Source: Patescibacteria group bacterium (lineage in GTDB: Bacteria > Patescibacteriota > Patescibacteriia > Veblenbacterales > UBA10138). Taken from it: 64,000 nt of DNA. Positions 2,444 through 63,079 of the stretch are shown here, piece by piece. Location: the NCBI GenBank assembly GCA_041645215.1, contig JBAZQK010000001.1:54091-118090 (forward strand), written 5' to 3'. Every line of letters begins with the position of its first letter. The first letter of the stretch is position 1. The translations under genes were made by a program, and so were the position numbers. The notes under the pieces were generated by a model. That model did not search any database and was not told the origin of the DNA. It was given only the letters and a program-made list of their open reading frames with translations.

Positions 2444-3040
2444 TTAGGGTTGGCACTGTCCTGGCGGGTAGGCCGCCCCGCGACATACTAAGAGGACAGG
2501 GGTGGTAGCAGGAGGGACAGCAGGGATGACACCACAATCAGCATTTTTGTAGCAAGTTTCGCCTTGTTTGCGTGATCCGGCTGCAAAAGTTTCAGTCGGC
2601 GTTCCACCACCCAGCGATGTAACGGTTTTTAAGTTTTTTACAATAAACGACGAAATAATAAACGACGCCATTATGATTATGAGTCCGATTATAGCGCCGC
2701 TTAAAACTTTTTTGGCTTTGGTAATTTTTTCCTCATTGCCGGCCGCGGTCATCCAGCTAAAGCCGCCGTAGATTATTAAAATGACCGCCAACACGCCCAC
2801 CAATCCTAGAACCACATTAATGATAGTGGCCGCCACTAATACCGGGTCAGCTTCGCCAATCGGCAAACCTGCGGCTTTGGCGGTGTTTTTCAGGTTGTAG
2901 TCCTGCACTAGGGCAGGAGGATTTGGGTTTTCAGCGTAAACCGTTTTAACGTTAACAACTAGCGTAAACGAGAAAGCCATTAATACGCTAGCCATTAAAA
3001 TTATTAAAGCGATTTGCCCTTGTTTATAAGGACGTTTCAT
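2444..3040 (-). CDS. Secreted T4SS-type pilin (CPR TrbC/VirB2-like family) with a Cys-rich C-terminal tail.
   Basis: Signal/TM segment, then ...GGFSWMTAAGNEEKITKAKKVL... flanked by two hydrophobic helices. The C-terminus reads CYKNADCG...CRGAAYPPGQCQP. The same W-MTAAGNEEK core appears in the next three genes. Confidence 0.6.
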   Translation of the reverse strand: MKRPYKQGQIALIILMASVLMAFSFTLVVNVKTVYAENPNPPALVQDYNLKNTAKAAGLPIGEADPVLVAATIINVVLGLVGVLAVILIIYGGFSWMTAAGNEEKITKAKKVLSGAIIGLIIIMASFIISSFIVKNLKTVTSLGGGTPTETFAAGSRKQGETCYKNADCGVIPAVPPATTPVLLVCRGAAYPPGQCQP

Positions 3041-3067
3041 AGATTATTTTCCTCCGCTGTCAATACC

Positions 3068-3097
3068 CCGCGGCTGGCCGCGGGAAAAAAATAGGGA
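3068..3097 (-). terminator. Rho-independent terminator after the pilin gene at 3210-3572, read on the minus strand.
   Basis: ccccgcggctggccgcggg followed by aaaaaaa on the plus strand, which gives a GC hairpin plus U-run on the minus strand. Confidence 0.4.
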
Positions 3098-3209
3098 GAA
3101 TCCTCCGAAGTCCTCCTTGGGAGGACGAAGGAGGAGTATGGAGCTTCGGACGAATGAACACTTTTTGAAGAGCCGCCGATACCTCGTCGGCTTGCCGCGA
3201 GGTAGTTCA

Positions 3210-3572
3210 TTAAGGAGTGGCGCCAGTGGCATTAGATAAGTTGCTGATGACAAATGAGGCAATGGCGAAAGCGGCAAAGATGATTACTAAGCCAACTACG
3301 CCCGCTCCCAGTAATTTTTTGGCCTCGCCCACCTTTTCCTCGTTGCCGGCCGCGGTCATCCATTTAAAACCACCCATCAGAATTAATACTACCGCGACAA
3401 CACCTAAGAAACCTAAGATGACATTGATAATTTGCGCTATAGTGGTAATTAAATCCTTGTTGCCGAGGTTGACGTTACCCTCCAATGGGGTTAGCCCGTA
3501 GTTTTGCGCCAATACGACTGCTGGCAGGCCGTACATTACAGCGCCCGTAACAGATGCAATTATTTTTTTCAT
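3210..3572 (-). CDS. T4SS-type pilin, the minimal 120-aa form.
   Basis: Signal peptide, then ...GGFKWMTAAGNEEKVGEAKKLL... followed by a hydrophobic helix. Confidence 0.6.
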   Translation of the reverse strand: MKKIIASVTGAVMYGLPAVVLAQNYGLTPLEGNVNLGNKDLITTIAQIINVILGFLGVVAVVLILMGGFKWMTAAGNEEKVGEAKKLLGAGVVGLVIIFAAFAIASFVISNLSNATGATP

Positions 3573-12762: not shown

Positions 12763-13032
12763 GTCTAAGCATACTATCTAAAGTGAGGCGCAGCTACGAC
12801 GAGATCTGGCGAAGCCATGACGGGATCCCGCCAGTTTTCTCCTACATTTGGAGCGGGTAGCCCCAGTAGAATGTGCTTCGCACCTCTACGGGGCGCGGCG
12901 GGAGTCCCGCAGTATAGGCTTTGCCTAACTACGGGATAAATCGAACCCGCGTGATGAGTTTGTCCCGCAGCGACGAGATGAACGAAGTGAATCCGTCCGG
13001 CTGCGAGGATCCCGTTGCGTTACACCGCACAG

Positions 13033-15008: not shown

Positions 15009-15161
15009 ATAAGTGTATTACAGTGAGTTGTTTATTTTACGCTGTAAAGTGTAATGGGACCTGTCCGATGTACATCGGACCGCGCTAGCCTCAACCAAAG
15101 GCTGATCCGCCTCTGGCGGAAACTGCGCCAATCCCCGATGAATGTATTACATTGTTAATTT

Positions 15162-18892: not shown

Positions 18893-18970
18893 CGTATGAC
18901 GGGTTGGGGTGGCTAATGGGAATTGAACTCCCGTAATCGCTGCCACAGAGCGGTGTTCTACCATTGAACT
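18893..18970 (-). pseudogene. Degenerate partial copy of tRNA-His (D-arm to T-arm), overlapped by the stop-codon region of the Doc/Fic gene.
   Basis: ccgtaatcgctgccacagagcggtgttctaccattgaacta matches 21786-21826 of the intact tRNA-His apart from one substitution. The 5' acceptor is replaced and the last codons of the Doc/Fic ORF (RRLVQW*) are encoded within the D-arm sequence. Confidence 0.5.
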
Positions 18971-19377
18971 AACCGGCGTTTAATGAATTTTTCTATGTAT
19001 TTTACAGTTTCGTCTTTGGCTTCAGCCGGGCCTTGGGCTACCCAGAGAGCAAAATTATAAAGTTCGGTTTTGTCGGCTTTTAACCACTTGCCGTTTAAAT
19101 ACAAAAAAACCAACAAGGCAGTGACGGCTATTCGCTTATTGCCGTTTTGAAAAGGATGGTTTTTATTTAACAAATAAAATAGCATGGCCGCCTTGCTGAT
19201 TAGGCCATGGTAAAGATATTTTTTATCAAACTTTTGCCAAGGAACAGTCAGGCAGCTTTCCAAAACATTCGGATATCTGGTTGCAAAAGGCGGAATCGGT
19301 TCGTCCCAATTCATGGTTTTGGTGGTCAGGGTGTGGGCGGTGTATTTGATCATTTCCACTGAAATATTCTTAATCAT
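18958..19377 (-). CDS. Fic/Doc-family protein (death-on-curing type toxin/AMPylase-phosphotransferase fold).
   Basis: HPFQNGNKRIAVTA matches the Doc/Fic motif HxFx(D/N)GNKR. 139 aa. Confidence 0.7.
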   Translation of the reverse strand: MIKNISVEMIKYTAHTLTTKTMNWDEPIPPFATRYPNVLESCLTVPWQKFDKKYLYHGLISKAAMLFYLLNKNHPFQNGNKRIAVTALLVFLYLNGKWLKADKTELYNFALWVAQGPAEAKDETVKYIEKFIKRRLVQW

Positions 19378-21752: not shown

Positions 21753-21827
21753 TGGGGTGAGTGAGGGGAATCGAACCCCCGTAACCGCTGCCACAGAGCG
21801 GTGTTCTACCATTGAACTACACCCACC
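21753..21827 (-). tRNA. tRNA-His(GTG) with G-1 and an encoded CCA.
   Basis: The reverse complement is G-GTGGGTGTAGTTCAATGGTAGAACACCGCTCTGTGGCAGCGGTTACGGGGGTTCGATTCCCCTCACTCACCCCA, anticodon loop CTGTGGC. Confidence 0.85.
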
Positions 21828-23351: not shown

Positions 23352-23740
23352 AGGTTTTATGTTAATGGTATTTAAGATGCTTATAAACTTTATTATAGCG
23401 CGAAAATTGGCAATGTCTAAAATTTAATGATTCGGTTTTTTTATTCTACTACTACTTTTACCTTTTTATCTTTGCAGTATTCTTGAATTAGTCCGAACCC
23501 CAGTAGTACCCTGCTAAGCGGGGACACGGGGCATAGCGCATTTCACTCTGCCAGTTGGAGGGCGAGCCTGCCTGCCGGCAGGCAGGGAAGTCCCCCCGCG
23601 AAAATTCGGAAAGGCGGCGGAGCCGCACCGCTGACAATTTCAAGTTTTTCTTTGGCGACAAATTCTTAAAATTTAATTTATTTGAGAGTAAAGGTACAAC
23701 CGTATTTATCGTCGTGCCAATTGTAATTACATCAAACATT

Positions 23741-24277
23741 TTATTTTTTAATTAAAGCTGCTATAACGATTAAAATAATAAAAGGCGCAATAGTCCAGAT
23801 CGGTTGGAATATTATGTTAAGAATTTTTGAGGGGAATTTTATAGTGGGAAATATAAACCAAAATTTTTCTATTTTTGTCTGCTCTATAACCTCCCCTTTC
23901 ATTTTTAAAAGCCAAATGAGATCGGCGACTAAAATCAAATGATAAATACCTACCCACCAAAGCTCACTCTTTATAACCATGAGGGTGGCTACAACAAAAA
24001 TGGTACCGACAAAAATAAAGGACGGGAATACATAAAGAAACCATGGTAAATTTACCGCTCGCTTGAATTTCTCGCTCGTAGCCCAATGGCCTTGCCACTT
24101 TTGTATCGTTTCCGCGGGAACAAATTCATTCATTGGCGTTTTCTGAGATAATTCTTTCCATTGTGCCGCTTTATTCTTTCTTAAGATAAAAATAGCTACA
24201 CTTAAAAAGTTTTGATGCAAACCAAAAATTAACAGAAGAACTGAGATATTCATTAATATATTAAACAATGTATTCAT
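23741..24277 (-). CDS. Hypothetical membrane protein.
   Basis: 178 aa with four or five hydrophobic helices and no motif I recognise. Confidence 0.3.
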   Translation of the reverse strand: MNTLFNILMNISVLLLIFGLHQNFLSVAIFILRKNKAAQWKELSQKTPMNEFVPAETIQKWQGHWATSEKFKRAVNLPWFLYVFPSFIFVGTIFVVATLMVIKSELWWVGIYHLILVADLIWLLKMKGEVIEQTKIEKFWFIFPTIKFPSKILNIIFQPIWTIAPFIILIVIAALIKK

Positions 24278-24462
24278 ATTTTATAGTAAAATTAGTTTTC
24301 GACTTTATGATTAAAAATTTTTCTTTTTCTCCTTTCAAAACCGCCAATTCGTTTTTACCCCCAAAATTGAATACCAATTAGTCGCCGAGCCCCGCACCAG
24401 AACAAGTTCGGTGTGGGATAAACTCCACGAGGCGAACCAAAACTCTTTGACTTTTCCTGTCT

Positions 24463-24526
24463 GGTGCCTCGGGAGGAATTGAACCTACATCAGTGGCTTA
24501 GAAGTCCACAGTTCTATCTTCACCCC
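24463..24526 (-). pseudogene. Degenerate, D-arm-deleted copy of the adjacent tRNA-Arg.
   Basis: ggaggaattgaacctacatcagtggcttagaagtccacagttctatcttcacccc aligns with 24541-24600 of the intact gene with substitutions. The D-arm is missing and the acceptor strands are not complementary. Confidence 0.4.
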
Positions 24527-24534
24527 TTTATTTA

Positions 24535-24606
24535 TCCCCCCGAGAGGAATTGAACCTCTATACCCGGCTTAGAAGTCCGGAGTTCTATCCATTGAACTAC
24601 AGGGGG
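24535..24606 (-). tRNA. tRNA-Arg(TCT), flanked by an 18-nt perfect leader/trailer inverted repeat. There is an A-G mismatch at position 31-39.
   Basis: The reverse complement is CCCCCTG TA GTTCAATGGATAGAAC TCCGGACTTCTAAGCCGGG TATAGAGGTTCAATTCCTCTCGGGGGG A. The flanking cccctttatttatccccc (24523-24540) and gggggataaataaagggg (24603-24620) are exact reverse complements. Confidence 0.55.
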
Positions 24607-24714
24607 GATAAATAAAGGGGCAAGTTGTCCGCTCCGTCGTCGCTCCGTCATCGCTTCGCCAGATCTCGCAGAGCGACGACGGAGCGGGAAACTACGAGGG
24701 CATAGGGAAATGTA

Positions 24715-24850
24715 ACCCCAGTATATCAACTTCGCTAACAAAATTAGCGAGCGTGAGTCGAAAGACTGTTTAATAAATAAATGGTGATTTAACTTTGATT
24801 AATTTTACTGATTTTGTTAAGAGCGAGCTATAGCGAAGTAGTTATACTGG
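24715..24850. mobile_element. MITE-like element of family 'cccagtata' (copy 1 of 3), about 136 bp with terminal inverted repeats and no coding capacity.
   Basis: cccagtatatcaacttcgctaacaaaattagcgagc ... gagctatagcgaagtagttatactggg. Near-identical copies lie at 42279-42416 and, inverted, at 55338-55480. Confidence 0.5.
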
Positions 24851-24990
24851 GTAAAATTCAAAAATCTCCGCCCAAGGCGGATCTACCTAGGGTACGAAAA
24901 ATGTAAAATTATTTACAAATGTGTTTTATTTTTAAATTTGATAAGGGCTAATCAATTTTATTACTAATTTAAACTAAATTCAAGCTTATT

Positions 24991-25890
24991 TTAAGTGTAG
25001 CGTTTAGTGGTAATAATATTAGCGTGGCCCAGAGTTTGTTGGATATTTTTTATGGTGTTGCCTTGTTTTATAAGTTGATTGGCAAAAACGTGACGCAAGG
25101 TTGAGGGTGTAATTTTTTTATTCAGTCCAGCCGCCAAACGATAGTGTTTAATTATTCTTTGTAAGCTGCGAGGGGTTAAGGCAAAATTATGACGTTGCTT
25201 GCGCACGGGCGAGGTTTGAGCGCGATCATGACTAATGAATAAGGCTGGCTCGGTATCATGCCGCGCCTTTAGATAATTGTTTATAATATTTTTAATATTA
25301 GGCGGCAATGGTATTTGGCGTACCCGACCTTTAGTACGGCTGATCGTAATAAAATTTTCCTCCGCCTTAAGCGCGTTACGTTGCAGGTGGGACAATTCGG
25401 AAACTTTTAAACCCGCCGCCACCAATAAATTTAAAATCGCTAAGTCGCGTTTTTTTATTAATTCACTATCTTGGCTTTGTTCACAAAATTTAATCATTAA
25501 ATTAACCTCGGCCGCGCTGACCGCCGGTAAAATGATTGAACGCAGTCGCTTTAACGACAAGTTGGTATAGTCAGGCACCGGAATGCCGGTTTGTGACAGG
25601 TATTTTAAAAAAGCCCGCAGTCCGATTAAATAATAATTTTGCGTGGCCGGCGACAAGTTGTGCCCGCTATTGGAGGTGGATTGCTTAAGCCAGGCCTTAT
25701 AGTTTTCCAAGTGCTGGCCGGTGAGGTCGCTGGCTTTATCAAGTTTAACCCGGGCCTGGTCCGACCATTGCCGGAATTTATTCAGATAAATGCGGTAATT
25801 GGATGCCGACGATTGGCTCAACTGGCGCTTAAGTTTAAGCGTTTGCAGAAAATTGTTTATGGTTTCGTTTAAACCAGCCGGGTTCGCCAT
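24991..25890 (-). CDS. Tyrosine-type site-specific recombinase (phage-integrase/XerCD family).
   Basis: C-terminal ...TLRHVFANQLIKQGNTIKNIQQTLGHANIITTKRYT carries the R...H..R..Y catalytic tetrad. The N-terminal SAM-like domain reads YRIYLNKFRQWS. Confidence 0.8.
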   Translation of the reverse strand: MANPAGLNETINNFLQTLKLKRQLSQSSASNYRIYLNKFRQWSDQARVKLDKASDLTGQHLENYKAWLKQSTSNSGHNLSPATQNYYLIGLRAFLKYLSQTGIPVPDYTNLSLKRLRSIILPAVSAAEVNLMIKFCEQSQDSELIKKRDLAILNLLVAAGLKVSELSHLQRNALKAEENFITISRTKGRVRQIPLPPNIKNIINNYLKARHDTEPALFISHDRAQTSPVRKQRHNFALTPRSLQRIIKHYRLAAGLNKKITPSTLRHVFANQLIKQGNTIKNIQQTLGHANIITTKRYT

Positions 25891-26141
25891 AGTATTAATA
25901 TTTTACGACACTTGTCCTAAAGCGTCCAGTTTTTAGTACACCGCCAAAATTAAAAGTTGTTAGTACACCGCTGTTAGTACAACCGCTTGACATCTACGGC
26001 AAAATGAGCTAAGTTAGTAAGTTCTTTAACAAACGTTTACAATCATCTTTTTGGGCACATAAAATACTCAAAAAGATGGTTGTAAACAATACAGAAATAA
26101 CATAATTCCATAAAACACAAACTAATTTAGGAGATCTTACA

Positions 26142-27317
26142 ATGAAACTAGTAGCTAACAGTGAAGTCACCGGAAAGGCAACAGTCGCAATAAGGTGGTG
26201 TTTAAGTAAGGAGGAGGTCGCTACCTTACGTGAAAAAAAAATTACTGATCCTTATCTATTGTTCGTTATTGTTCATGATAAGGTAAACGTTGATCGTCAA
26301 TTGGTTCGCCTTAATCAAATAATGACATATCTATCCTTTAATCATCCGGGCAGTAACACTGTATTTGCCACAATTGTATGGCATGGTAGCAAAACAAAAT
26401 TAAAGGAATGGTGTCTGTACACTGATAAAGATGGAGATTGGAGAAACAAGTTTTATGACAGCGAAGCAGACATGTTGGTGGCAGGTGATTGGGGTGAAGT
26501 CCGGATAGATGTCGATGTATCACCGGAATTCTTTGCCAAGGAGCCGCCAGCGTGGGAAAAGCGATGGGTGAATTTGTGGTTTGAAAGGAAAATGCCGCGT
26601 CATCAATGCAAGTATCGTAAACGTCGCATGCTCGCTTATTCTATCCAACCGCCATTGGTATTGGCGTTTATCATATTTATTTCCCTGTTCCGTTTTCTCG
26701 CTGCAGTGTTTTGGATTTTATTCCGGACCAAGACTGAAGTCAATCTTAAACCAATTGTCCGACCATTTGAATACGATAGTAATGATGTGTGGTGGCAGGC
26801 TAAGACTGCACGTAATTTCTATGCGGAGAATAAGAACTACAAAGAGAGGTCTCGTCTTGTGTGGTTATATCATCCAGTAGTTATTATCCTTGCGTCAGCG
26901 CTACTTTTTATTAGTGACAGGACTTTCGGAGGTTTATTTTTAGCCTCGCATTTCTTTTCAGCCTGGTGGTTGTACATTTTACTGAGCCCTATTGCTATAA
27001 CCTTGGTAGTGTTTGTAGCATTCATTATTACCGTGGTTATTTTTAACTTTGTTAAGTTAATTGGCTTAGTGTTTGGAAAAACCTCTAAAGAGGAGAAACA
27101 AACTAAAAAAGAGGATAAACAAAAACGTAAAAAAGAAGCGGAACAAGCTGTAATTGAGACAAAGCTTGAATTGATTGAAAGCGATTTATTGCCACTTACA
27201 TGTGGCGAGGAACAATTGATTCCTGAACTCAAAGCTCTTCCTAAAGAAAAGCGGACCATTTATCTTCGTTTTCTGGATCTCAGATCAAAATTATGTAAAC
27301 CGTTTGCAGGAGCTTGA
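26142..27317 (+). CDS. Hypothetical protein with a soluble N-terminal domain, TM helices and a Lys/Glu-rich tail, lying in a low-GC segment.
   Basis: 391 aa. It is markedly more AT-rich than its neighbours and sits next to the recombinase gene. No motif I recognise. Confidence 0.35.
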   Translation: MKLVANSEVTGKATVAIRWCLSKEEVATLREKKITDPYLLFVIVHDKVNVDRQLVRLNQIMTYLSFNHPGSNTVFATIVWHGSKTKLKEWCLYTDKDGDWRNKFYDSEADMLVAGDWGEVRIDVDVSPEFFAKEPPAWEKRWVNLWFERKMPRHQCKYRKRRMLAYSIQPPLVLAFIIFISLFRFLAAVFWILFRTKTEVNLKPIVRPFEYDSNDVWWQAKTARNFYAENKNYKERSRLVWLYHPVVIILASALLFISDRTFGGLFLASHFFSAWWLYILLSPIAITLVVFVAFIITVVIFNFVKLIGLVFGKTSKEEKQTKKEDKQKRKKEAEQAVIETKLELIESDLLPLTCGEEQLIPELKALPKEKRTIYLRFLDLRSKLCKPFAGA

Positions 27318-27568
27318 ACATTATTTTAATCCCAGACTTATTAATATAAGATGAGCTGGGATTTTTATTATGAATAGCCCTTGAACTCTACTTTATTATT
27401 TATATAATCCCTAGCTAGATATTTGAGTAATCTATTTGCTCCCCCGCTCCCTTGCCAAAGTTTAAGCTTTGTGGTAGATTGGTGGCGCATTATTATTAAC
27501 CGACGTTAACTTTGGTTGGCGGATTTATCCACCTCGACTAGACTAGCGTTTATAAGGAGAGCAATATC

Positions 27569-42278: not shown

Positions 42279-42416
42279 CCCAGTATAACTACTTTGTTAT
42301 AGCTCGCTTTTAAAATAAAATTTATAAATCAAATAAGTAACCTATCTAATCATTATCTCTTATTAGTTACTTAATCTAAGCTCGCTAAATTTTATTTAAC
42401 AAAGTTGTTATACTGG
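42279..42416. mobile_element. MITE-like element of family 'cccagtata' (copy 2).
   Basis: cccagtataactactttgttatagctcgctttta ... aagctcgctaaattttatttaacaaagttgttatactggg. The terminal inverted repeats are about 35 bp. Confidence 0.5.
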
Positions 42417-42548
42417 GTAAGAATAGAACATCTAAATTCTAAAACCTAAATTTTATAAATAATACTCAACAGCCAATTAATAACTCAAAAGTTAAATATC
42501 AAAATGAAAAATTTTTATTTTTGATTTTTACATTTTAAATTTTTTATC

Positions 42549-55337: not shown

Positions 55338-55480
55338 CCCAGTATAACTACTTCGCTACAACTCGCTTTTAACAAAATTAGTGCAATTAATATATTAATC
55401 AGATTTAAATTATCATTTATTTACTAAACAGTCTGTCAACTCACGCTCGTTAATTTTGTTAGCGAAGTTGATATACTGGG
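55338..55480. mobile_element. MITE-like element of family 'cccagtata' (copy 3, inverted relative to copy 1).
   Basis: cccagtataactacttcgctacaactcgcttttaacaaaattag ... taattttgttagcgaagttgatatactggg. Confidence 0.5.
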
Positions 55481-60599: not shown

Positions 60600-61001
60600 A
60601 TGGAAACTCAAAACTCAAATCGCAAAAGTCAAAACCACAACGTAAAAGCTAAAAGTGATTTAAAACACAGATGTTATTATTATTCCATTAATATCATTAA
60701 GTTTTTAAAAACCCTGCCTAATGATAAAGTATACTGGAGCATATCAGACCAGCTATTAAGGAGTGCCACTAGTATTGGAGCCAATGTAATTGAGGCAAAA
60801 TCAGCCAGTTCCAGAAGAGATTTCATTAAATTTTATGACATTGCCCTAAAGAGCGCCAATGAAACCAAATATTGGTTAGCCTTAATGAGAGACGCTCTTG
60901 GCATAACCGCAATCCAGGTTAATCCTTTGTTGATTGAAGTTGAAGAACTATCTAATATTTTAGCCGCCAGCTTGTTAACCTTAAAGAACAAAAGACAATG
61001 A
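60600..61001 (+). CDS. Four-helix-bundle protein (23S rRNA intervening-sequence protein/Avd-like family), divergent copy.
   Basis: LLRSATSIGANVIEAKSASSRRDFIKFYDIALKSANETKYWLALMRD matches the family core (compare the copy at 62693). It is flanked by the inverted repeat caaaaccacaacgtaaaag / cttttgcgttgtggttttg. Confidence 0.65.
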   Translation: METQNSNRKSQNHNVKAKSDLKHRCYYYSINIIKFLKTLPNDKVYWSISDQLLRSATSIGANVIEAKSASSRRDFIKFYDIALKSANETKYWLALMRDALGITAIQVNPLLIEVEELSNILAASLLTLKNKRQ

Positions 61002-61017
61002 TTTTTACTTTTGCGTT

Positions 61018-61512
61018 GTGGTTTTGAGATTTGACTTTTTAGTTTTAACTTTTCCTACTGTGCAACAATTCGTCGTGCCCCAATTTATAGACGTTGAGGA
61101 TAAAATTTTTGGCCCCATAACCACGCGGCAATTCATTATTTTGTTAGTGGGGGCGTTTATTCTTTTTATTGAGTATAAAATATTAGATTTTACCCTGTTT
61201 GTTCTACTGGGGGTAATAACATTGGTAGTTTTTGGAATTTTGGCCTTTTTTAAGATAAATGGTATGCCGGTTCACTATTTTTTGTTAAACTTTACTCAAA
61301 GCTTCAAACGCCCCAAGGTGCGCATTTGGCAAAAGGATATTAATGAGCAAGAGCTTAAACTAAACCTGCATCGCCCCGTGATGGTTACTAAGGCCGTAAC
61401 GGCGCTAAAGCCGCCTTTGGAAAAATCTAAACTCACCCAACTTGGTATGTTGGTTGATACGGGAGGAATGTATAGAGGAGAGGAAGAAGAGATTAGTAAG
61501 AGGAGTAATTAA
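61018..61512 (+). CDS. PrgI/TcpE-like small membrane protein (VirB3 analogue of Gram-positive-type T4SS).
   Basis: KIFGPITTRQFIILLVGAFILFI followed by a second TM helix, the PrgI-family pattern. The true start may be an internal GTG. Confidence 0.5.
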   Translation: MVLRFDFLVLTFPTVQQFVVPQFIDVEDKIFGPITTRQFIILLVGAFILFIEYKILDFTLFVLLGVITLVVFGILAFFKINGMPVHYFLLNFTQSFKRPKVRIWQKDINEQELKLNLHRPVMVTKAVTALKPPLEKSKLTQLGMLVDTGGMYRGEEEEISKRSN

Positions 61513-61532
61513 TGTAAAATGCAAAAATCAAA

Positions 61533-61904
61533 ATGGAAAATGACAAATTAAAATTTAAAAATGAATTCAAGAAAAGATTATATTCTTTTGTACTAAGCTT
61601 AATTAAGTTTATTGAATCTCTATCTAAAGGGGCTGTCAGCGATGTAATGGGTAAGCAATTATTACGCAGTGGCACTAGTATATTGGCCAATTATATAGAG
61701 GCCAATTCAGCCAGTTCCAAAAAAGATTTTATTAACTTTTTTACTCATTCTTTAAAATCAGCTAATGAATCAAAAGTTTGGCTAACACTCTTAAGAGATA
61801 CTAATAAAGGCAGTAAATCAGAGGTTGATTATCTTTTAAATGAATTGATAGAAATAGCTAATATTTTAGCTTCAAGTATATTAACTCTTAAAAACAAAAA
61901 ATAA
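61533..61904 (+). CDS. Four-helix-bundle protein (IVS/Avd-like family), divergent copy.
   Basis: LLRSGTSILANYIEANSASSKKDFINFFTHSLKSANESKVWLTLLRD. It is flanked by inverted aatgtaaa(t)atcaaaaatcaaaat repeats. Confidence 0.65.
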   Translation: MENDKLKFKNEFKKRLYSFVLSLIKFIESLSKGAVSDVMGKQLLRSGTSILANYIEANSASSKKDFINFFTHSLKSANESKVWLTLLRDTNKGSKSEVDYLLNELIEIANILASSILTLKNKK

Positions 61905-61954
61905 TTTTGCATTTTTAATTGTAATTTTGATTTTTGATATTTACATTTTGAATT

Positions 61955-62647
61955 TTGACTATGCCCAAACGCGAATTAGCCGGTAAAAAAAAGTCGCTCC
62001 CGTCAACCACCAGGTACTTGGATATTGGCGAGATTAGGGATGATGCCGTAGTTTTAAGAGATGGCACCTTGCGGGCCGTGTTGATGTGTTCGTCAATTAA
62101 TTTTTCGCTGAAAAGCGATGACGAGCAGAAGGCAATCGTGCAGGGCTATGTAAGTTTTCTTAATTCTTTGGAATTTCCTTTACAAATTGTGGCCCAATCG
62201 CGCAAATTAAATATTGACGGGTATTTGGCCAATTTAAACAACATCGCCAAACAGCAAACTAATGAATTGTTACGGGTGCAGATTAATGATTACACGGCCT
62301 ATATTAAAGAACTAATATCACTGGGCGATATTATGACTAAGCGTTTTTATGTGGTGGTGCCGTATAATCCGGGTAGTGACAAACGCCGCAGCTTTTGGGA
62401 GAGATTTGTTTCCATTTTTTCCGCCGCTAAAGCCGTTAGATTGTCGCGTGATAAATTTAATAAATATTTGGAATCTTTGGAAAGACGGGCTGGTCAGGTA
62501 GAAAGCGGCCTGGCCTCAATGGGTTTAACCGCGGTCCGACTTGATACCCAAAGTTTAATTGAGCTTTATTATACAAGTTACAATCCGGAACTTAGAGAAA
62601 CGGAAAAGTTGGCCGGAATGGATGAGATACAAGTGGAAGCAGATTAA
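61955..62647 (+). CDS. N-terminal roughly 230 aa of a VirB4/TcpF/PrgJ-like T4SS ATPase, separated from the rest of the gene.
   Basis: RDGTLRAVLMCSSINFSLKSDDEQKAIVQGYVSFLNSLEFPLQIVAQSRKLNIDGYLANL ... TKRFYVVVPYNPG aligns with the N-terminal region of Gram-positive VirB4-like ATPases (the TcpF/PrgJ pattern). The ORF stops at 62647 and homology continues in the ORF starting at 63147. Confidence 0.65.
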   Translation: MTMPKRELAGKKKSLPSTTRYLDIGEIRDDAVVLRDGTLRAVLMCSSINFSLKSDDEQKAIVQGYVSFLNSLEFPLQIVAQSRKLNIDGYLANLNNIAKQQTNELLRVQINDYTAYIKELISLGDIMTKRFYVVVPYNPGSDKRRSFWERFVSIFSAAKAVRLSRDKFNKYLESLERRAGQVESGLASMGLTAVRLDTQSLIELYYTSYNPELRETEKLAGMDEIQVEAD

Positions 62648-62692
62648 AATGACAAAATAGAATTACGAATACCGAATCATGAATAGCGAATT

Positions 62693-63079
62693 ATGAATAA
62701 AACCAGCGATACCATAAAGTCTTTTACTGATTTAAATAGTTGGCGCGAAGCCCACCAACTAGTTTTGCTGGTTTATCAGGCGACTGGCAGTTTTCCTAAA
62801 GAGGAATTATTTGGTTTAACCAATCAAATTAGGCGCGCCGCAGTTTCAATTACTTCCAATATAGCTGAAGGATTTAGTCGTCAAAGTTATTCTGAAAAAG
62901 TGCATTTCTATTCTATCGCTCAAGGTTCTTTAACCGAAGTTCAAAATCAGTTGCTGATTGCTCGCGATATTGGTTATATAAAGATAAATTCTTTTACGGT
63001 TTTAGCTGACCAATCAATCGCTGCTCATAAGACGCTTAGCGGATTAATAAAAAAATCTAAAACTATTCGTGATTCGTGA
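62693..63079 (+). CDS. Four-helix-bundle protein (23S rRNA IVS protein/Avd-like), canonical copy.
   Basis: WREAHQLVLLVYQATGSFPKEELFGLTNQIRRAAVSITSNIAEGFSRQSYSEKVHFYSIAQGSLTEVQNQLLIARDIGYI is a textbook member of the family. Confidence 0.85.
   Translation: MNKTSDTIKSFTDLNSWREAHQLVLLVYQATGSFPKEELFGLTNQIRRAAVSITSNIAEGFSRQSYSEKVHFYSIAQGSLTEVQNQLLIARDIGYIKINSFTVLADQSIAAHKTLSGLIKKSKTIRDS

Follow-up and report, generated by a model that had tools for sequence, protein, structure and literature searches.

A tRNA-Arg gene that probably lies within the D-loop of an older, dead tRNA-Arg gene of a CPR bacterium

We analysed a 64,000-nt stretch of DNA (the window) from an ultra-small (CPR) bacterium and found that it probably contains a complete tRNA-Arg gene inside the D-loop of an older, now dead tRNA-Arg gene. 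In our reading, to which we give a probability of about 0.7, a tRNA gene is nested in a tRNA gene as a stem-clamped cassette that replaced its target and spread horizontally, and the nearby recombinase gene, MITE-like element and 391-aa gene are mere neighbours. The anatomy is that of an ancestral tRNA-Arg(UCU) gene split in its D-arm/D-loop and holding a hairpin and a cassette, with only ~170 bp enclosed between the outer fragments. In the cassette of ~100 nt, two complementary arms of 13 nt each flank a complete tRNA-Arg(UCU) gene, and the discriminator base is the first base of the 3' arm. The initial annotation had regarded the locus as an insertion site, and our results agreed with this; the partial tRNA copy is the footprint left by an insertion.

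The inner, intact tRNA-Arg(TCT) gene was located at 24535..24606 (minus strand) by Rfam (62.4 bits against a gathering score of 29), with ARAGORN agreeing on the placement, and it folded as a cloverleaf. It has a C1-G72 pair, does not encode CCA, and is the sole tRNA-Arg(UCU) gene within the 64-kb window, where AGA and AGG account for 15% of the 592 Arg codons of 21 ORFs, which we counted as a sign that the tRNA is needed. The inverted-repeat search returned two 19-nt arms around it (24523-24541 and 24602-24620; 100% complementary, spacing 60 nt), each extending 13 nt beyond the acceptor stem. The cassette 3' arm (24523..24535, minus strand) comprises discriminator A73 and the 12-nt trailer TAAATAAAGGGG, and the 5' arm (24608..24620, minus strand) is the 13-nt leader CCCCTTTATTTAT. 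Leader and trailer thus extend the acceptor helix, as had been proposed, and the proposed one-nucleotide offset from the canonical register was real. Both the offset and the perfect 19-mer repeat result from an extra C in a C-run (24607..24607, minus strand), which is absent from the L171 copy of the cassette; that copy has five Cs and its arms pair in the canonical register.

Leader, tRNA and trailer together folded, as RNA, into a cloverleaf with a 22-bp closing stem (-54.9 kcal/mol, z = -7.0), and the DNA fold had the same shape. All five other cassettes folded (L011, L018, L025, L043 and L171, the last by ViennaRNA only) gave a stem-closed cloverleaf, and shuffle controls for the first four gave z = -6.1 to -7.9. 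The other 7-8 tRNAs in the window have at most 3 contiguous leader/trailer pairs each. We also surveyed 44 CPR tRNA-Arg(TCT) genes: non-nested ones had at most 7 such pairs (median 2), and contiguous helices of 8-16 bp occurred in nested genes only, the helix being interrupted in nested L043 and L080. We know of no leader-trailer helix at single bacterial tRNA genes.

The outer tRNA-Arg(TCT) gene persists as two fragments on the minus strand. Its 5' fragment (24690..24701, nt 1-12), GCCCTCGTAGTT, is the only exact match of that 12-mer in 64 kb; it exactly matches the 5' end of the L003 tRNA, which is intact, and is complementary to the 3' acceptor strand in the outer 3' fragment, not to that of the inner tRNA. 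The 3' fragment (24462..24518, nt 18-76), detected as a direct repeat, runs from the D-loop to an encoded CCA and aligns full-length with the L003 tRNA; joined, the two pieces rebuild that tRNA over its full length. Positions 24467-24518 are 81% identical to the inner tRNA, so the degenerate copy previously described is genuine, but it starts 16 nt from the inner tRNA 3' end rather than 10 bp away. One G lost from the acceptor 3' strand, one T-stem mismatch and an altered D-loop mark the outer gene as a pseudogene, and the inner and outer tRNAs differ in their acceptor, anticodon and T stems. The 4-nt linker TGAA (24519..24522, minus strand) separates the cassette from the outer 3' fragment, and identical TGAA junctions were found in L171 and L084. 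On the other side, CAA and CTTG (24621..24627, minus strand; CAACTTA in L171) lie between the 5' arm and the hairpin; CAA is a leftover of the outer D-loop (nt 13-15), and CTTG is able to pair with TGAAG on the trailing side. A sequence of ~45 nt further downstream (24346..24388, minus strand), beyond the outer tRNA, is ~96% identical to its positional counterpart behind the nested tRNA of L043 (Saccharibacteria).

The long hairpin reported in the initial annotation is present, with 23-nt arms (24623-24645 and 24671-24693) that are 91% complementary. It is a GC-rich 62-nt element (24628..24689, minus strand) that separates nt 12 from nt 13 in the D stem of the outer gene, and it is an enlarged form of a 30-nt two-hairpin module found at the same position in L171, L004, L011, L018 and L025. 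Another copy of the module (24866..24897, plus strand), read on the minus strand, is the intrinsic terminator of the recombinase gene, and small hairpin elements also occur in the D stem, T-loop and anticodon loop of dead tRNA copies. The MITE was likewise found: an element with 20-21-nt terminal inverted repeats (24717..24851, plus strand) forms a separate insertion in the interval between the recombinase terminator and the tRNA locus. It is one of three copies in the window (the others at 42279-42417 and 55338-55480), with 6 terminal-repeat matches against 0.15 expected.

Nested loci made up 4 of 40 species-representative CPR loci (L011, L018, L025 and L043), and further cases were L004, L079 and L080. 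At L003 (Kerfeldbacteria), the resident tRNA-Arg(TCT) is intact and the site empty. The sister genome L171 has the window's cassette at this site, and the two share 83% identity in the recombinase and 84-87% in the flanks. In a second empty/filled pair, L031/L025, flank identities are 99.7% and 94.3%, with 136 nt standing in place of CAATG. Both pairs showed that the hairpin module and the cassette arrive jointly, with clean junctions and neither target duplication nor deletion. L171 matches the window at 94.5% over the 164 nt of cassette and outer 3' fragment; outside them only patches of 72-78% were found, and the recombinases are 49% identical. A near-identical cassette in so distant a genome, beside an empty sister site, together with sister cassettes elsewhere, suggests that the cassette moves horizontally. 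Its position in the D-loop is family-specific (17/18, 18/19, 19/20 or 21/22), and layered tRNA fragments in L171 and L011 point to repeated events. Our literature search, which was not exhaustive, returned no matching tRNA-in-tRNA case.

We aligned four cassettes from three families and assessed covariation of the arms. The results showed that 9 of 13 arm pairs had changed on both sides and none on one side only; 96% of cells paired, G-U pairs were absent, and pairing fell to 41-58% when the partner was shifted by 1-3 columns. The arm sequences thus differ between families with Watson-Crick pairing kept. The lack of G-U is at least as well explained by a palindrome at the DNA level, or by one arm having served as template for the other, as by RNA-level selection.

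The tyrosine recombinase gene noted earlier does exist (24991..25890, minus strand; Phage_integrase domain, E = 1e-26). Judging from its gene order and family matches, it is an ordinary chromosomal gene and a neighbour of the cassette, not part of it. The 299-aa protein has a SAM-like N-terminal domain and a catalytic domain, and its best family matches are XerA, XerD and XerC. It resembles these chromosomal recombinases in length, domains, model matches and conserved chromosomal position, but its scores do not reach the NCBIfam equivalog cut-offs (XerA: 154.7, cut-off 220) and no dif site was identified. The order of divergent rpsO and recombinase genes followed by tRNA-Arg(TCT) is kept in L003, L171, L004, L011, L022 and L080, and in L044 the recombinase lies directly upstream of the tRNA; these recombinases share 32-49% identity with that of the window. 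The rpsO-recombinase pairing also occurs in L172 and L173. This synteny and the Xer-type matches overturn the assignment of the recombinase to an integrated element. Alignment with the L003 rpsO-recombinase intergenic region further delimited a lineage-specific inserted block of 1.5 kb (25938..27446, plus strand) that holds the 391-aa membrane protein gene (26142-27317) and neither recombinase nor tRNA, so this gene is not cargo of a tRNA-integrated element. The gene is AT-rich, as had been stated, but only mildly so (39.6% GC against 44.1% for the window), and the predicted border near 27.5 kb is right for this block, which is separate from the tRNA locus. The family of the 391-aa gene is CPR-only, with homologues elsewhere in unrelated contexts.

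These data bear directly on the original proposal that MITE, recombinase and 391-aa cargo form a classical island using the tRNA as attachment site. A tyrosine recombinase gene does adjoin a tRNA with a partial duplicate, and the slightly AT-rich 391-aa gene is missing from the relatives L003 and L004. However, the tRNA fragments bracket only the hairpin and cassette with the recombinase outside, the recombinase is a syntenic Xer-like gene lying upstream of the tRNA 5' end where island integrases lie at the 3' end, and the 391-aa block has its own borders; we consider an island very improbable. Only slightly less improbable is local tandem duplication and decay, in which one copy lost its 5' part, the 12-mer and complementary flanks are accidental and nothing is mobile. 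It would suit L018, L079 and L084, where the inner tRNA is nearly identical to the downstream fragment, and the L084 flanks are direct, not inverted, repeats, so it may hold for single loci such as L084. For the window it is contradicted by the L003/L171 pair, in which the identical cassette and arms occur in a distant genome beside an empty sister site; moreover, the inner and outer tRNAs differ, the arms covary, and the order is nested rather than tandem, the outer 5' piece preceding the inner gene. We hold it equally improbable that the outer tRNA is functional and the hairpin and clamped inner tRNA are removed as an intron, one transcript giving two tRNAs, in the manner of archaeal non-canonical tRNA introns or split tRNAs joined through complementary flanks. 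In its favour, the clean insertions in the D stem, D-loop and T-loop match positions at which archaeal tRNA genes have introns, the outer halves are drawn close by the complementary flanks, the acceptor stem of the outer tRNA closes the fold of the whole locus, and L025 and L171 retain intact outer exons. The outer gene has nevertheless decayed in the window and in L011, L018 and L080, and there is therefore no selection on it after insertion; to our knowledge, no splicing endonuclease exists in bacteria.

A more serious contender, though still unlikely, takes the arms as DNA-level ends of a non-autonomous mobile element and not as an RNA clamp, with a single-stranded DNA hairpin inserting into exposed loops of a target folded as a cloverleaf. 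The enzyme, encoded elsewhere, could be a single-strand transposase of the IS200/IS605 or RAYT type, or else a tyrosine recombinase that works on folded strands, as at integron attC sites and in CTX phage. The clean insertion without target duplication, the end-to-end self-complementarity, the strictly Watson-Crick arms free of one-sided changes, the D-loop position proper to each family, the small hairpins in dead copies and the Xer-like gene beside many, but not all, nested loci (L025 and L043 have no adjacent recombinase) are consistent with it. On the other side, the arms are single-copy in 64 kb, the scan of ~35 window ORFs returned 0 transposases, and no cassette-inserting enzyme was identified; D-loop nucleotides kept between module and cassette fit transfer of the whole allele more easily. 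If the arms are such DNA ends, the circle or junction sequence would be ...GGGGTGAA joined to CTTGCCCC....

Under the preferred reading of a nested, stem-clamped replacement, the cassette would probably be transcribed within a composite precursor; its own promoter is not evident, a simple scan upstream having given nothing convincing. The arms and acceptor stem would form a 20-23-bp helix that keeps the inner cloverleaf apart from the outer fragments, whose homology to the inner tRNA could otherwise lead to mispairing. A passage in PMC9433436 describes inhibition of bacterial RNase P by leader pairing with the 3' end, so the clamp helix is probably not neutral. Trimming by RNase P and RNase Z and CCA addition would first require the helix to open or to be cleaved, perhaps by an enzyme of the RNase III type. 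For spread, the least certain step, the simplest route may be transfer of the composite allele after DNA uptake, with recombination through conserved tRNA sequence on both sides. DNA uptake is plausible because natural competence has been shown in CPR Saccharibacteria, according to a section of PMC10187176; the left homology arm between distant lineages is only 12 nt, which is very short for RecA-type exchange. First entry of a clamped tRNA into a D-loop could have involved hairpin or single-strand transposition, or a recombinase on a folded strand. L043 and L080, with their interrupted helices, and L084 and L062, which have a downstream 3' fragment and little or no clamp, deviate from a uniform scheme.

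The locus can be compared with several known systems. Williams (2002) reportedly described integrative elements (prophages, ICEs, genomic islands) in tRNA genes. Such elements insert into tRNA genes and leave tRNA fragments at attL/attR (PMC9897764). The tRNA target, the incoming tRNA sequence that preserves function, the displaced fragments as footprints and the layering by repeated events are alike, but here the incomer has only ~100-150 nt, encodes no integrase and brings a whole tRNA instead of a 3' segment; lying inside the D-loop, it leaves both 5' and 3' fragments, with no duplicated core found at the junctions and no fusion of the incoming to the resident tRNA. Archaeal disrupted tRNA genes (non-canonical introns, split or permuted tRNAs), said to have been described by Randau (2005), Fujishima (2009/2010) and Chan (2011), share clean D-arm, D-loop and T-loop insertions, flanks that join halves by complementarity and possible multiple insertions per gene. 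In contrast, the host here is bacterial, the interrupted gene decays and is not spliced, and the insert is a complete tRNA of the same isoacceptor; neither a bulge-helix-bulge motif nor a splicing endonuclease was identified. MITEs, REP/REPIN and IS200/IS605-derived palindromes are also small and protein-less, have hairpins or terminal inverted repeats and would need mobilisation in trans. The two-hairpin module (30-31 nt) behaves like a REP: it occurs several times per 64 kb, has variants specific to each genome and serves as a terminator. The cassette differs in being single-copy in the window, lacking target duplication, carrying an essential gene and conserving between families not its arm sequences but their pairing alone. 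Leader-trailer helices of rRNA operons are cut by RNase III, as an excerpt of PMC10250234 states. There, too, a long flank helix encloses a structured RNA in its precursor and offers a double-strand-specific processing site, whereas the helix of the cassette is a direct extension of the acceptor stem that takes in the discriminator base, and its processing is predicted.

Because the inner tRNA replaces the tRNA that it destroyed, the host would depend on it. With the same stem-clamped cassette present in unrelated CPR genomes, the cassette therefore resembles a very small mobile gene that encodes no protein and takes the place of the target it enters.

We examined the tRNA-Arg(TCT) gene that ARAGORN and Rfam both called at 24535-24606 on the minus strand (the inner tRNA). 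Its Rfam score of 62.4 bits against a gathering threshold of 29, its 7-nt anticodon loop and the anticodon tct reported by ARAGORN are those of a canonical cloverleaf. A repeat search of the window found a perfect 19-nt inverted repeat around it (24523-24541 with 24602-24620). Read on the minus strand, the unit is CCCCTTTATTTAT-C-tRNA-TAAATAAAGGGG, with the 3' arm starting at discriminator A73 and the ends reading ...AAAGGGGTGAA and CTTGCCCCTTT...; we call this unit of about 100 nt the cassette. Its 13-nt arms form MITE-like terminal inverted repeats (about 17 nt if CTTG/TGAAG is added). Thirteen base pairs (19 in a slipped register) join the leader to the discriminator and trailer, and the single-stranded, RNase P-accessible leader and trailer of a canonical tRNA were not found. 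The precursor folded as RNA into a cloverleaf closed by a 22-bp stem (-54.9 kcal/mol, z = -7.0), and as DNA into the same structure. These results agree with the initial annotation, which had described complementary flanks extending the acceptor helix in a register offset by one nucleotide and had proposed folding the precursor as a check. The offset in the window is due to one extra C (24607) within a C-run; the register is canonical in L171, a Kerfeldbacteria locus. No other tRNA of the window showed leader/trailer complementarity, and no further copies of the arms or of the stem repeat of the neighboring GC-rich hairpin were found in the 64 kb, where a copy related to the loop region of that hairpin lies at 12800-12828. 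Rfam at permissive thresholds on 24250-24950 returned only tRNA, with chance microRNA-like matches for the hairpin. We also observed that an A31-G39 mismatch closes the anticodon loop (GGACTTCTAAGCC) in all 44 surveyed CPR tRNA-Arg(UCU) genes, and that it is kept in inner and outer tRNA copies alike (inner copy, window 24562-24570 region).

A degenerate tRNA copy had been noted beside the inner tRNA. The sequence is real (24462-24518), but it is not a stand-alone copy: it is the 3' piece of a split resident gene (the outer tRNA) and runs from D-loop nucleotide 18 through the encoded CCA. The 5' piece, GCCCTCGTAGTT at 24690-24701, lies on the upstream side of the inner tRNA, past the GC-rich hairpin, and occurs exactly only once in the 64 kb. 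Its first seven bases complement the acceptor 3' strand of the downstream fragment, save for one missing G, and are not complementary to the acceptor strand of the inner tRNA. The intact tRNA at the same syntenic position in L003, a Kerfeldbacteria relative, consists of the window 5' piece, CAATG and the 3' piece, indicating that the resident outer gene was split. A 62-nt hairpin (24628-24689) is inserted between outer nucleotides 12 and 13, and the D-loop remnant CAA is followed by a linker, an arm, the inner tRNA, the second arm and TGAA (24519-24624). We conclude with high confidence that one tRNA gene is nested inside another. The outer gene of the window has decayed, with a 1-nt acceptor deletion, a T-stem mismatch and an altered D-loop, and on this ground the reading of the insert as an intron was rejected for the window. 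The functional, intact exons of an archaeal-type intron-bearing or split tRNA were likewise not found, as the outer gene is decayed in the window and in the nested loci L011, L018 and L080. A retro-copy of a mature tRNA was also rejected, since no cassette carries CCA after the discriminator. A keyword search of the literature gave no match for a tRNA gene clamped by a stem and lying within a gene of the same isoacceptor, which is not proof of absence.

The arrangement recurs across CPR genomes. We scanned one genome per species with the D-arm/anticodon segment of tRNA-Arg(TCT) and obtained 40 loci, four of which were nested (L011, L018, L025 and the Saccharibacteria locus L043); L004, L079 and L080 are further cases. 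The insertion points fell in the D-loop at 17/18, 18/19, 19/20 and 21/22, and sequences read by eye showed that at each insertion the outer left and right pieces split the D-loop cleanly, with no duplication or loss. A search of metagenomes for pairs of anticodon arms with a spacing of 45-75 nt returned at least 120 loci, most of which were spaced repeat arrays (probably CRISPR-like; not inspected one by one) or low-complexity coding repeats; useful among the matches listed were L062, L079, L080 and L084. Several layers of 5' and 3' tRNA fragments were present in L171 and L011, which suggests repeated invasions. Several CPR genomes also carry a T-arm/acceptor 3' fragment (GGTTCGA ... TTCCTCTCGGGGGCA) downstream of tRNA-Arg(TCT), its T-loop broken by a 40-nt hairpin (L003 8478-8570; L171 1540-1600; downstream of the tRNA in L025 and L031), and a further fragment in L003 and L011 has its anticodon loop lengthened to form a perfect hairpin (GGCAGGTAAGCC...). 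Both kinds of fragment look like older layers of the nesting process.

The arms are conserved in pairing rather than in sequence. Among 44 surveyed tRNA-Arg(TCT) genes, contiguous helices of 8-16 bp occurred only in nested genes, and the non-nested genes had at most 7 bp (median 2), in line with the earlier remark that such a helix is unusual for a bacterial tRNA. L011, L018, L025 and L043 folded into stem-closed cloverleaves with z = -6.1 to -7.9, as did L171 (ViennaRNA, without shuffle control). We then aligned the window, L171, L011 and L025 through the tRNA, the arms being gap-free. Nine pairs of the 13-bp arm helix were changed on both sides and none on one side only; 96% of cells were paired, with no G-U pair in the four cassettes. 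When the pairing partner was shifted by 1-3 columns, arm pairing fell to 41-58%. The U(-1)-A73 pair was invariant in all four.

Two pairs of empty and filled sites were compared. L171 is the sister of L003 (recombinases 83% identical, flanks 84-87%). Its copy of the same tRNA is interrupted at 12/13 by a 30-nt two-hairpin module, after which come CAACTTA, the leader CCCCTTTATTTAT, an inner tRNA that differs from that of the window by one base, and the trailer TAAATAAAGGGGTGAA; the outer 3' part still matches the functional L003 tRNA exactly. In the second pair, L025 is the filled member and L031 the empty one. Their flanks agree to 99.7% and 94.3%, and CAATG is replaced in L025 by 136 nt consisting of the module, CAATG, an arm, a different inner tRNA and an arm. 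In both pairs module and cassette are jointly present or jointly absent, and no target-site duplication was found at the junctions. L171 and the window are 94.5% identical over 164 nt across the cassette and outer 3' fragment, while their recombinases share only 49% identity and alignment elsewhere is limited to short patches of 72-78%. A neutral, vertically inherited flank would not stay identical at such a distance, which argues that the cassette, or the composite allele, moved horizontally. On these sequence comparisons we consider the cassette probably mobile between lineages. A stretch of about 45 nt, CTCGGCGACTAATTKGTATTCAATTTTGGGGGTAAAAACGAATT (window 24346-24388; L043 about 1190-1235), is about 96% identical between the window and the Saccharibacteria genome, and absent from the closer relatives L003 and L018. 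In both genomes it lies downstream of the outer tRNA, preceded by CACCA..GGAAAAGTCAA and a GC-rich hairpin. It suggests that the outer tRNA region, too, was transferred horizontally.

The initial annotation had read the locus as an integrated island using the tRNA as its attachment site and carrying a MITE, a recombinase and cargo. The long hairpin, the three-copy MITE, the recombinase and the 391-aa ORF are all present, but the island did not hold up. The window comes from a Patescibacteria (CPR) MAG, and its recombinase (24991-25890, minus strand) has its closest relatives in Kerfeldbacteria, at 48-49% identity. In L003, L004 and L171 the genes ChlI, peptidase A8, DksA, PNPase, NYN and S15 are followed divergently by the recombinase and tRNA-Arg(TCT), and the window has the same order; DUF3048 comes next in L003, L018 and L171. 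The order of S15, divergent recombinase and tRNA-Arg was also found in L011, L022 and L080 by tblastn, the recombinase lies directly upstream of the tRNA in L044, and the S15-recombinase pair is present in L172 and L173 at 35-37% identity. Altogether, the arrangement of rpsO-NYN-pnp divergent from the recombinase occurs in at least eight lineages at 32-49% identity, a conserved context of the kind seen for Xer genes. The best NCBIfam matches were XerA_Arch (154.7 bits, cut-off 220), XerD (150.4, cut-off 329.6) and XerC (141.2, cut-off 335), all under their equivalog cut-offs. Gene orientation diverges around 25-26 kb in the window, which is atypical of a replication terminus. Given the conserved order and these matches, the recombinase is best regarded as a vertically inherited, Xer-like chromosomal gene on sequence grounds. 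The annotation itself had foreseen that conservation in relatives would speak for a chromosomal Xer, and the synteny of the recombinase bears this out.

Geometry leads to the same result. The recombinase is not inside an element on the 3' side of the tRNA: it sits upstream of the 5' end and is not enclosed by the two tRNA fragments. These fragments, the only tRNA-derived repeats (24690-24701 and 24462-24518), enclose about 170 bp and bound no whole element. The recombinase is kept at the site in L003, L171, L004, L011, L022, L044 and L080; only the 391-aa gene block is absent from relatives there. This block of 1.5 kb (25938-27446) stands in place of about 12 nt of the L003 intergenic region, and its gene (GC 39.6% versus 44.1% for the window) belongs to a CPR-restricted family with unrelated neighborhoods in other genomes. 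A classical attL/attR island was rejected in view of synteny and geometry, and the 391-aa gene as recombinase-linked cargo by homologues in unrelated contexts; the block is a separate insertion. The neighboring 'integrase' should not serve as evidence of an island, being a conserved Xer-like gene in these genomes. The mechanism first proposed was largely wrong: the locus holds a nested tRNA replacement cassette that probably spreads horizontally, and its neighbors are a housekeeping Xer-like gene and, as two unrelated insertions, the MITE and the 391-aa block. At the left border of the block, just upstream of the conserved recombinase promoter region, three direct repeats TTAGTACA(C/A)CCGC (25933-25986) may be protein-binding sites. 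In the more distant CPR genome L173, two small lineage-specific ORFs (1514-2358) lie between rpsO and the recombinase; like the 391-aa gene, they suggest that accessory genes have repeatedly settled in this spacer.

The two-hairpin module is a REP-like element of 30-31 nt (TCCGCC-loop-GGCGGA-TC-4-bp hairpin-TGA) whose stems covary and whose variants are genome-specific. Its window copies start at 15120 (minus strand), 24866, 40122 and 55297 (minus strand), with the expanded copy at 24628-24689, and it is also present in L004, L011, L018, L025 and L171. The two L011 copies are nearly identical to each other and unlike those of other genomes, as in REP/REPIN repeats. In dead tRNA copies the module interrupts either the D stem, following GTT (12/13), or the T-loop (GGTT^CGATTCC, L011 and L080), and in intergenic copies the reverse complement would act as an intrinsic terminator. 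An unannotated pseudo-tRNA 5' half between tRNA-Lys and tRNA-Pro (15040-15135, minus strand), with acceptor CGGGGAT, a D-arm and the anticodon arm GTA, corresponds to Tyr; its D-loop is interrupted after AGTT by a 30-nt module, an insertion of the kind seen in the dead tRNA-Arg copies. The cccagtata family has three copies of 135-143 nt (24717-24851, 42279-42417 and 55338-55480) with terminal repeats of 20-21 nt, as in MITEs, and the TAA/TAAA flanks may reflect a short duplication. The copies at 24717 and 55338 share about 12 nt of flank on each side (GGAAAT.TAA ... TAAAAT); the mobile unit may be longer than the terminal repeats indicate, or may have a specific target preference.

Other features were noted elsewhere in the window. 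A weak Rfam tRNA (38 bits) at 18910-18978 is a decayed copy of tRNA-His(GTG) at 21753-21826. GC dips to 27-36% in the 2.8 kb between them, which hold HTH_17 and Fic genes (toxin-antitoxin-like), a TPM-domain gene and a 215-aa ORF, and the segment 18910-21826 looks like a small integrase-less island bounded by tRNA-His repeats. L001, the same strain from another sample and 99.9% identical elsewhere, differs at 23456-23680 (L001 12290-12589): it has a GC-rich hairpin, CGCCCCGCC..GGCGGGGCG, where the window has CCCTGCCTGCCGGCAGGCAGG, and divergence is complete after GGTTCGGACTAATTCAAGAATACTGCA. This is strain-level structural variation in a REP-like hairpin patch, and the 83-aa ORF called there is probably spurious. 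At 60600-63079, three paralogous '23S rRNA intervening sequence protein' genes (Avd-like four-helix bundle) are interleaved with a PrgI-family gene, and 2444-3572 holds type IV secretion pilin genes. Avd-like proteins are companions of diversity-generating retroelements, but the window showed no reverse transcriptase.

How the cassette is expressed can be outlined from its context. Since AGA and AGG make up 15% of Arg codons (21 ORFs) and the inner gene is the only tRNA-Arg(UCU) gene seen in the window, it is presumably the working tRNA. A promoter scan gave nothing convincing for the cassette and the outer 5' piece follows the MITE at a distance of 15 nt, so the inner tRNA may be transcribed inside a composite precursor. 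The 20-23-bp helix would shield the inner cloverleaf from the homologous outer pieces. It would have to be cut or melted before RNase P acts, since a leader paired with the 3' end is inhibitory to bacterial RNase P (PMC9433436). The obvious candidate for opening it would be an RNase III-type cut, as in rRNA leader-trailer helices (PMC10250234).

For its spread, the cassette may move after DNA uptake, and Saccharibacteria are documented to be competent (PMC10187176). The joint arrival of module and cassette, with outer D-loop nucleotides retained between them, points to transfer of the whole composite allele via the conserved tRNA sequence, although the left homology arm is just 12 nt between distant hosts. 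A DNA-level hairpin mechanism fits the purely Watson-Crick arms and the end-to-end self-complementarity of the cassette equally well; it might be transposition of a single strand, or a recombinase might act on the folded strand. Re-templating of one arm from the other is a further candidate. A Pfam scan of about 35 window ORFs turned up no transposase or Y1/RAYT gene. We rejected site-specific recombination with a duplicated overlap, as sequences read by eye showed no shared core at the two junctions. A phage or virus as the vehicle was likewise rejected after six scans of viral contigs gave no match to the inner tRNA (both T-loop variants), the general D-arm/anticodon pattern, the arm, the 5'-fragment-plus-module junction or the 45-nt downstream motif. 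We give any particular mechanism of insertion or processing less than even odds.

tRNA genes are classic landing sites of mobile DNA. Integrative elements that target them were reportedly treated by Williams in 2002. To our knowledge, every known incomer of a tRNA gene brings its own enzyme and only part of the tRNA; the incomer here appears to be nothing beyond a tRNA gene with two complementary arms. In logic, the cassette is closest to the tRNA-targeting integrative elements, in which the incoming tRNA sequence repairs the target and fragments remain (PMC9897764). Those elements, however, bring an integrase and a 3' tRNA segment only, and leave only a 3' fragment with a duplicated core. In geometry, it is closest to the disrupted tRNAs of archaea, with their clean D-arm, D-loop and T-loop insertions and complementary flanks, but the archaeal interrupted gene is spliced and functional, whereas here the interrupted gene decays. 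In size and in lacking a protein, it resembles MITEs and REP/REPIN elements; unlike them, it is single-copy in 64 kb, makes no target duplication and carries an essential gene.

We propose, tentatively and with a probability of about 0.35, that CPR bacteria carry a class of protein-less, selfish 'homing' tRNA cassettes of about 100 nt, each a complete tRNA-Arg(UCU) gene closed by a 13-bp stem that changes in sequence but remains paired. Such a cassette would enter the D-loop of the resident gene, destroy that gene, take over its transcription and function and become indispensable, and would spread between distant lineages, leaving Russian-doll layers of fragments. The stem would have two roles: folded as single-stranded DNA it would help insertion, and in the composite precursor it would help to release the tRNA. 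If truly mobile, the cassette would be a minimal 'addictive' replacement element, in which a structural RNA gene acts as a selfish unit, and a means by which distant CPR lineages could exchange tRNA genes horizontally. It would account for part of the tRNA-fragment clutter of CPR genomes, which confuses tRNA annotation. It would also provide a natural bacterial case of a 20-bp leader/trailer helix resolved before RNase P, so that the order in which tRNA ends are processed in reduced genomes could be tested directly, and a bacterial parallel to the split and intron-bearing tRNA genes of archaea that bears on how those arise.
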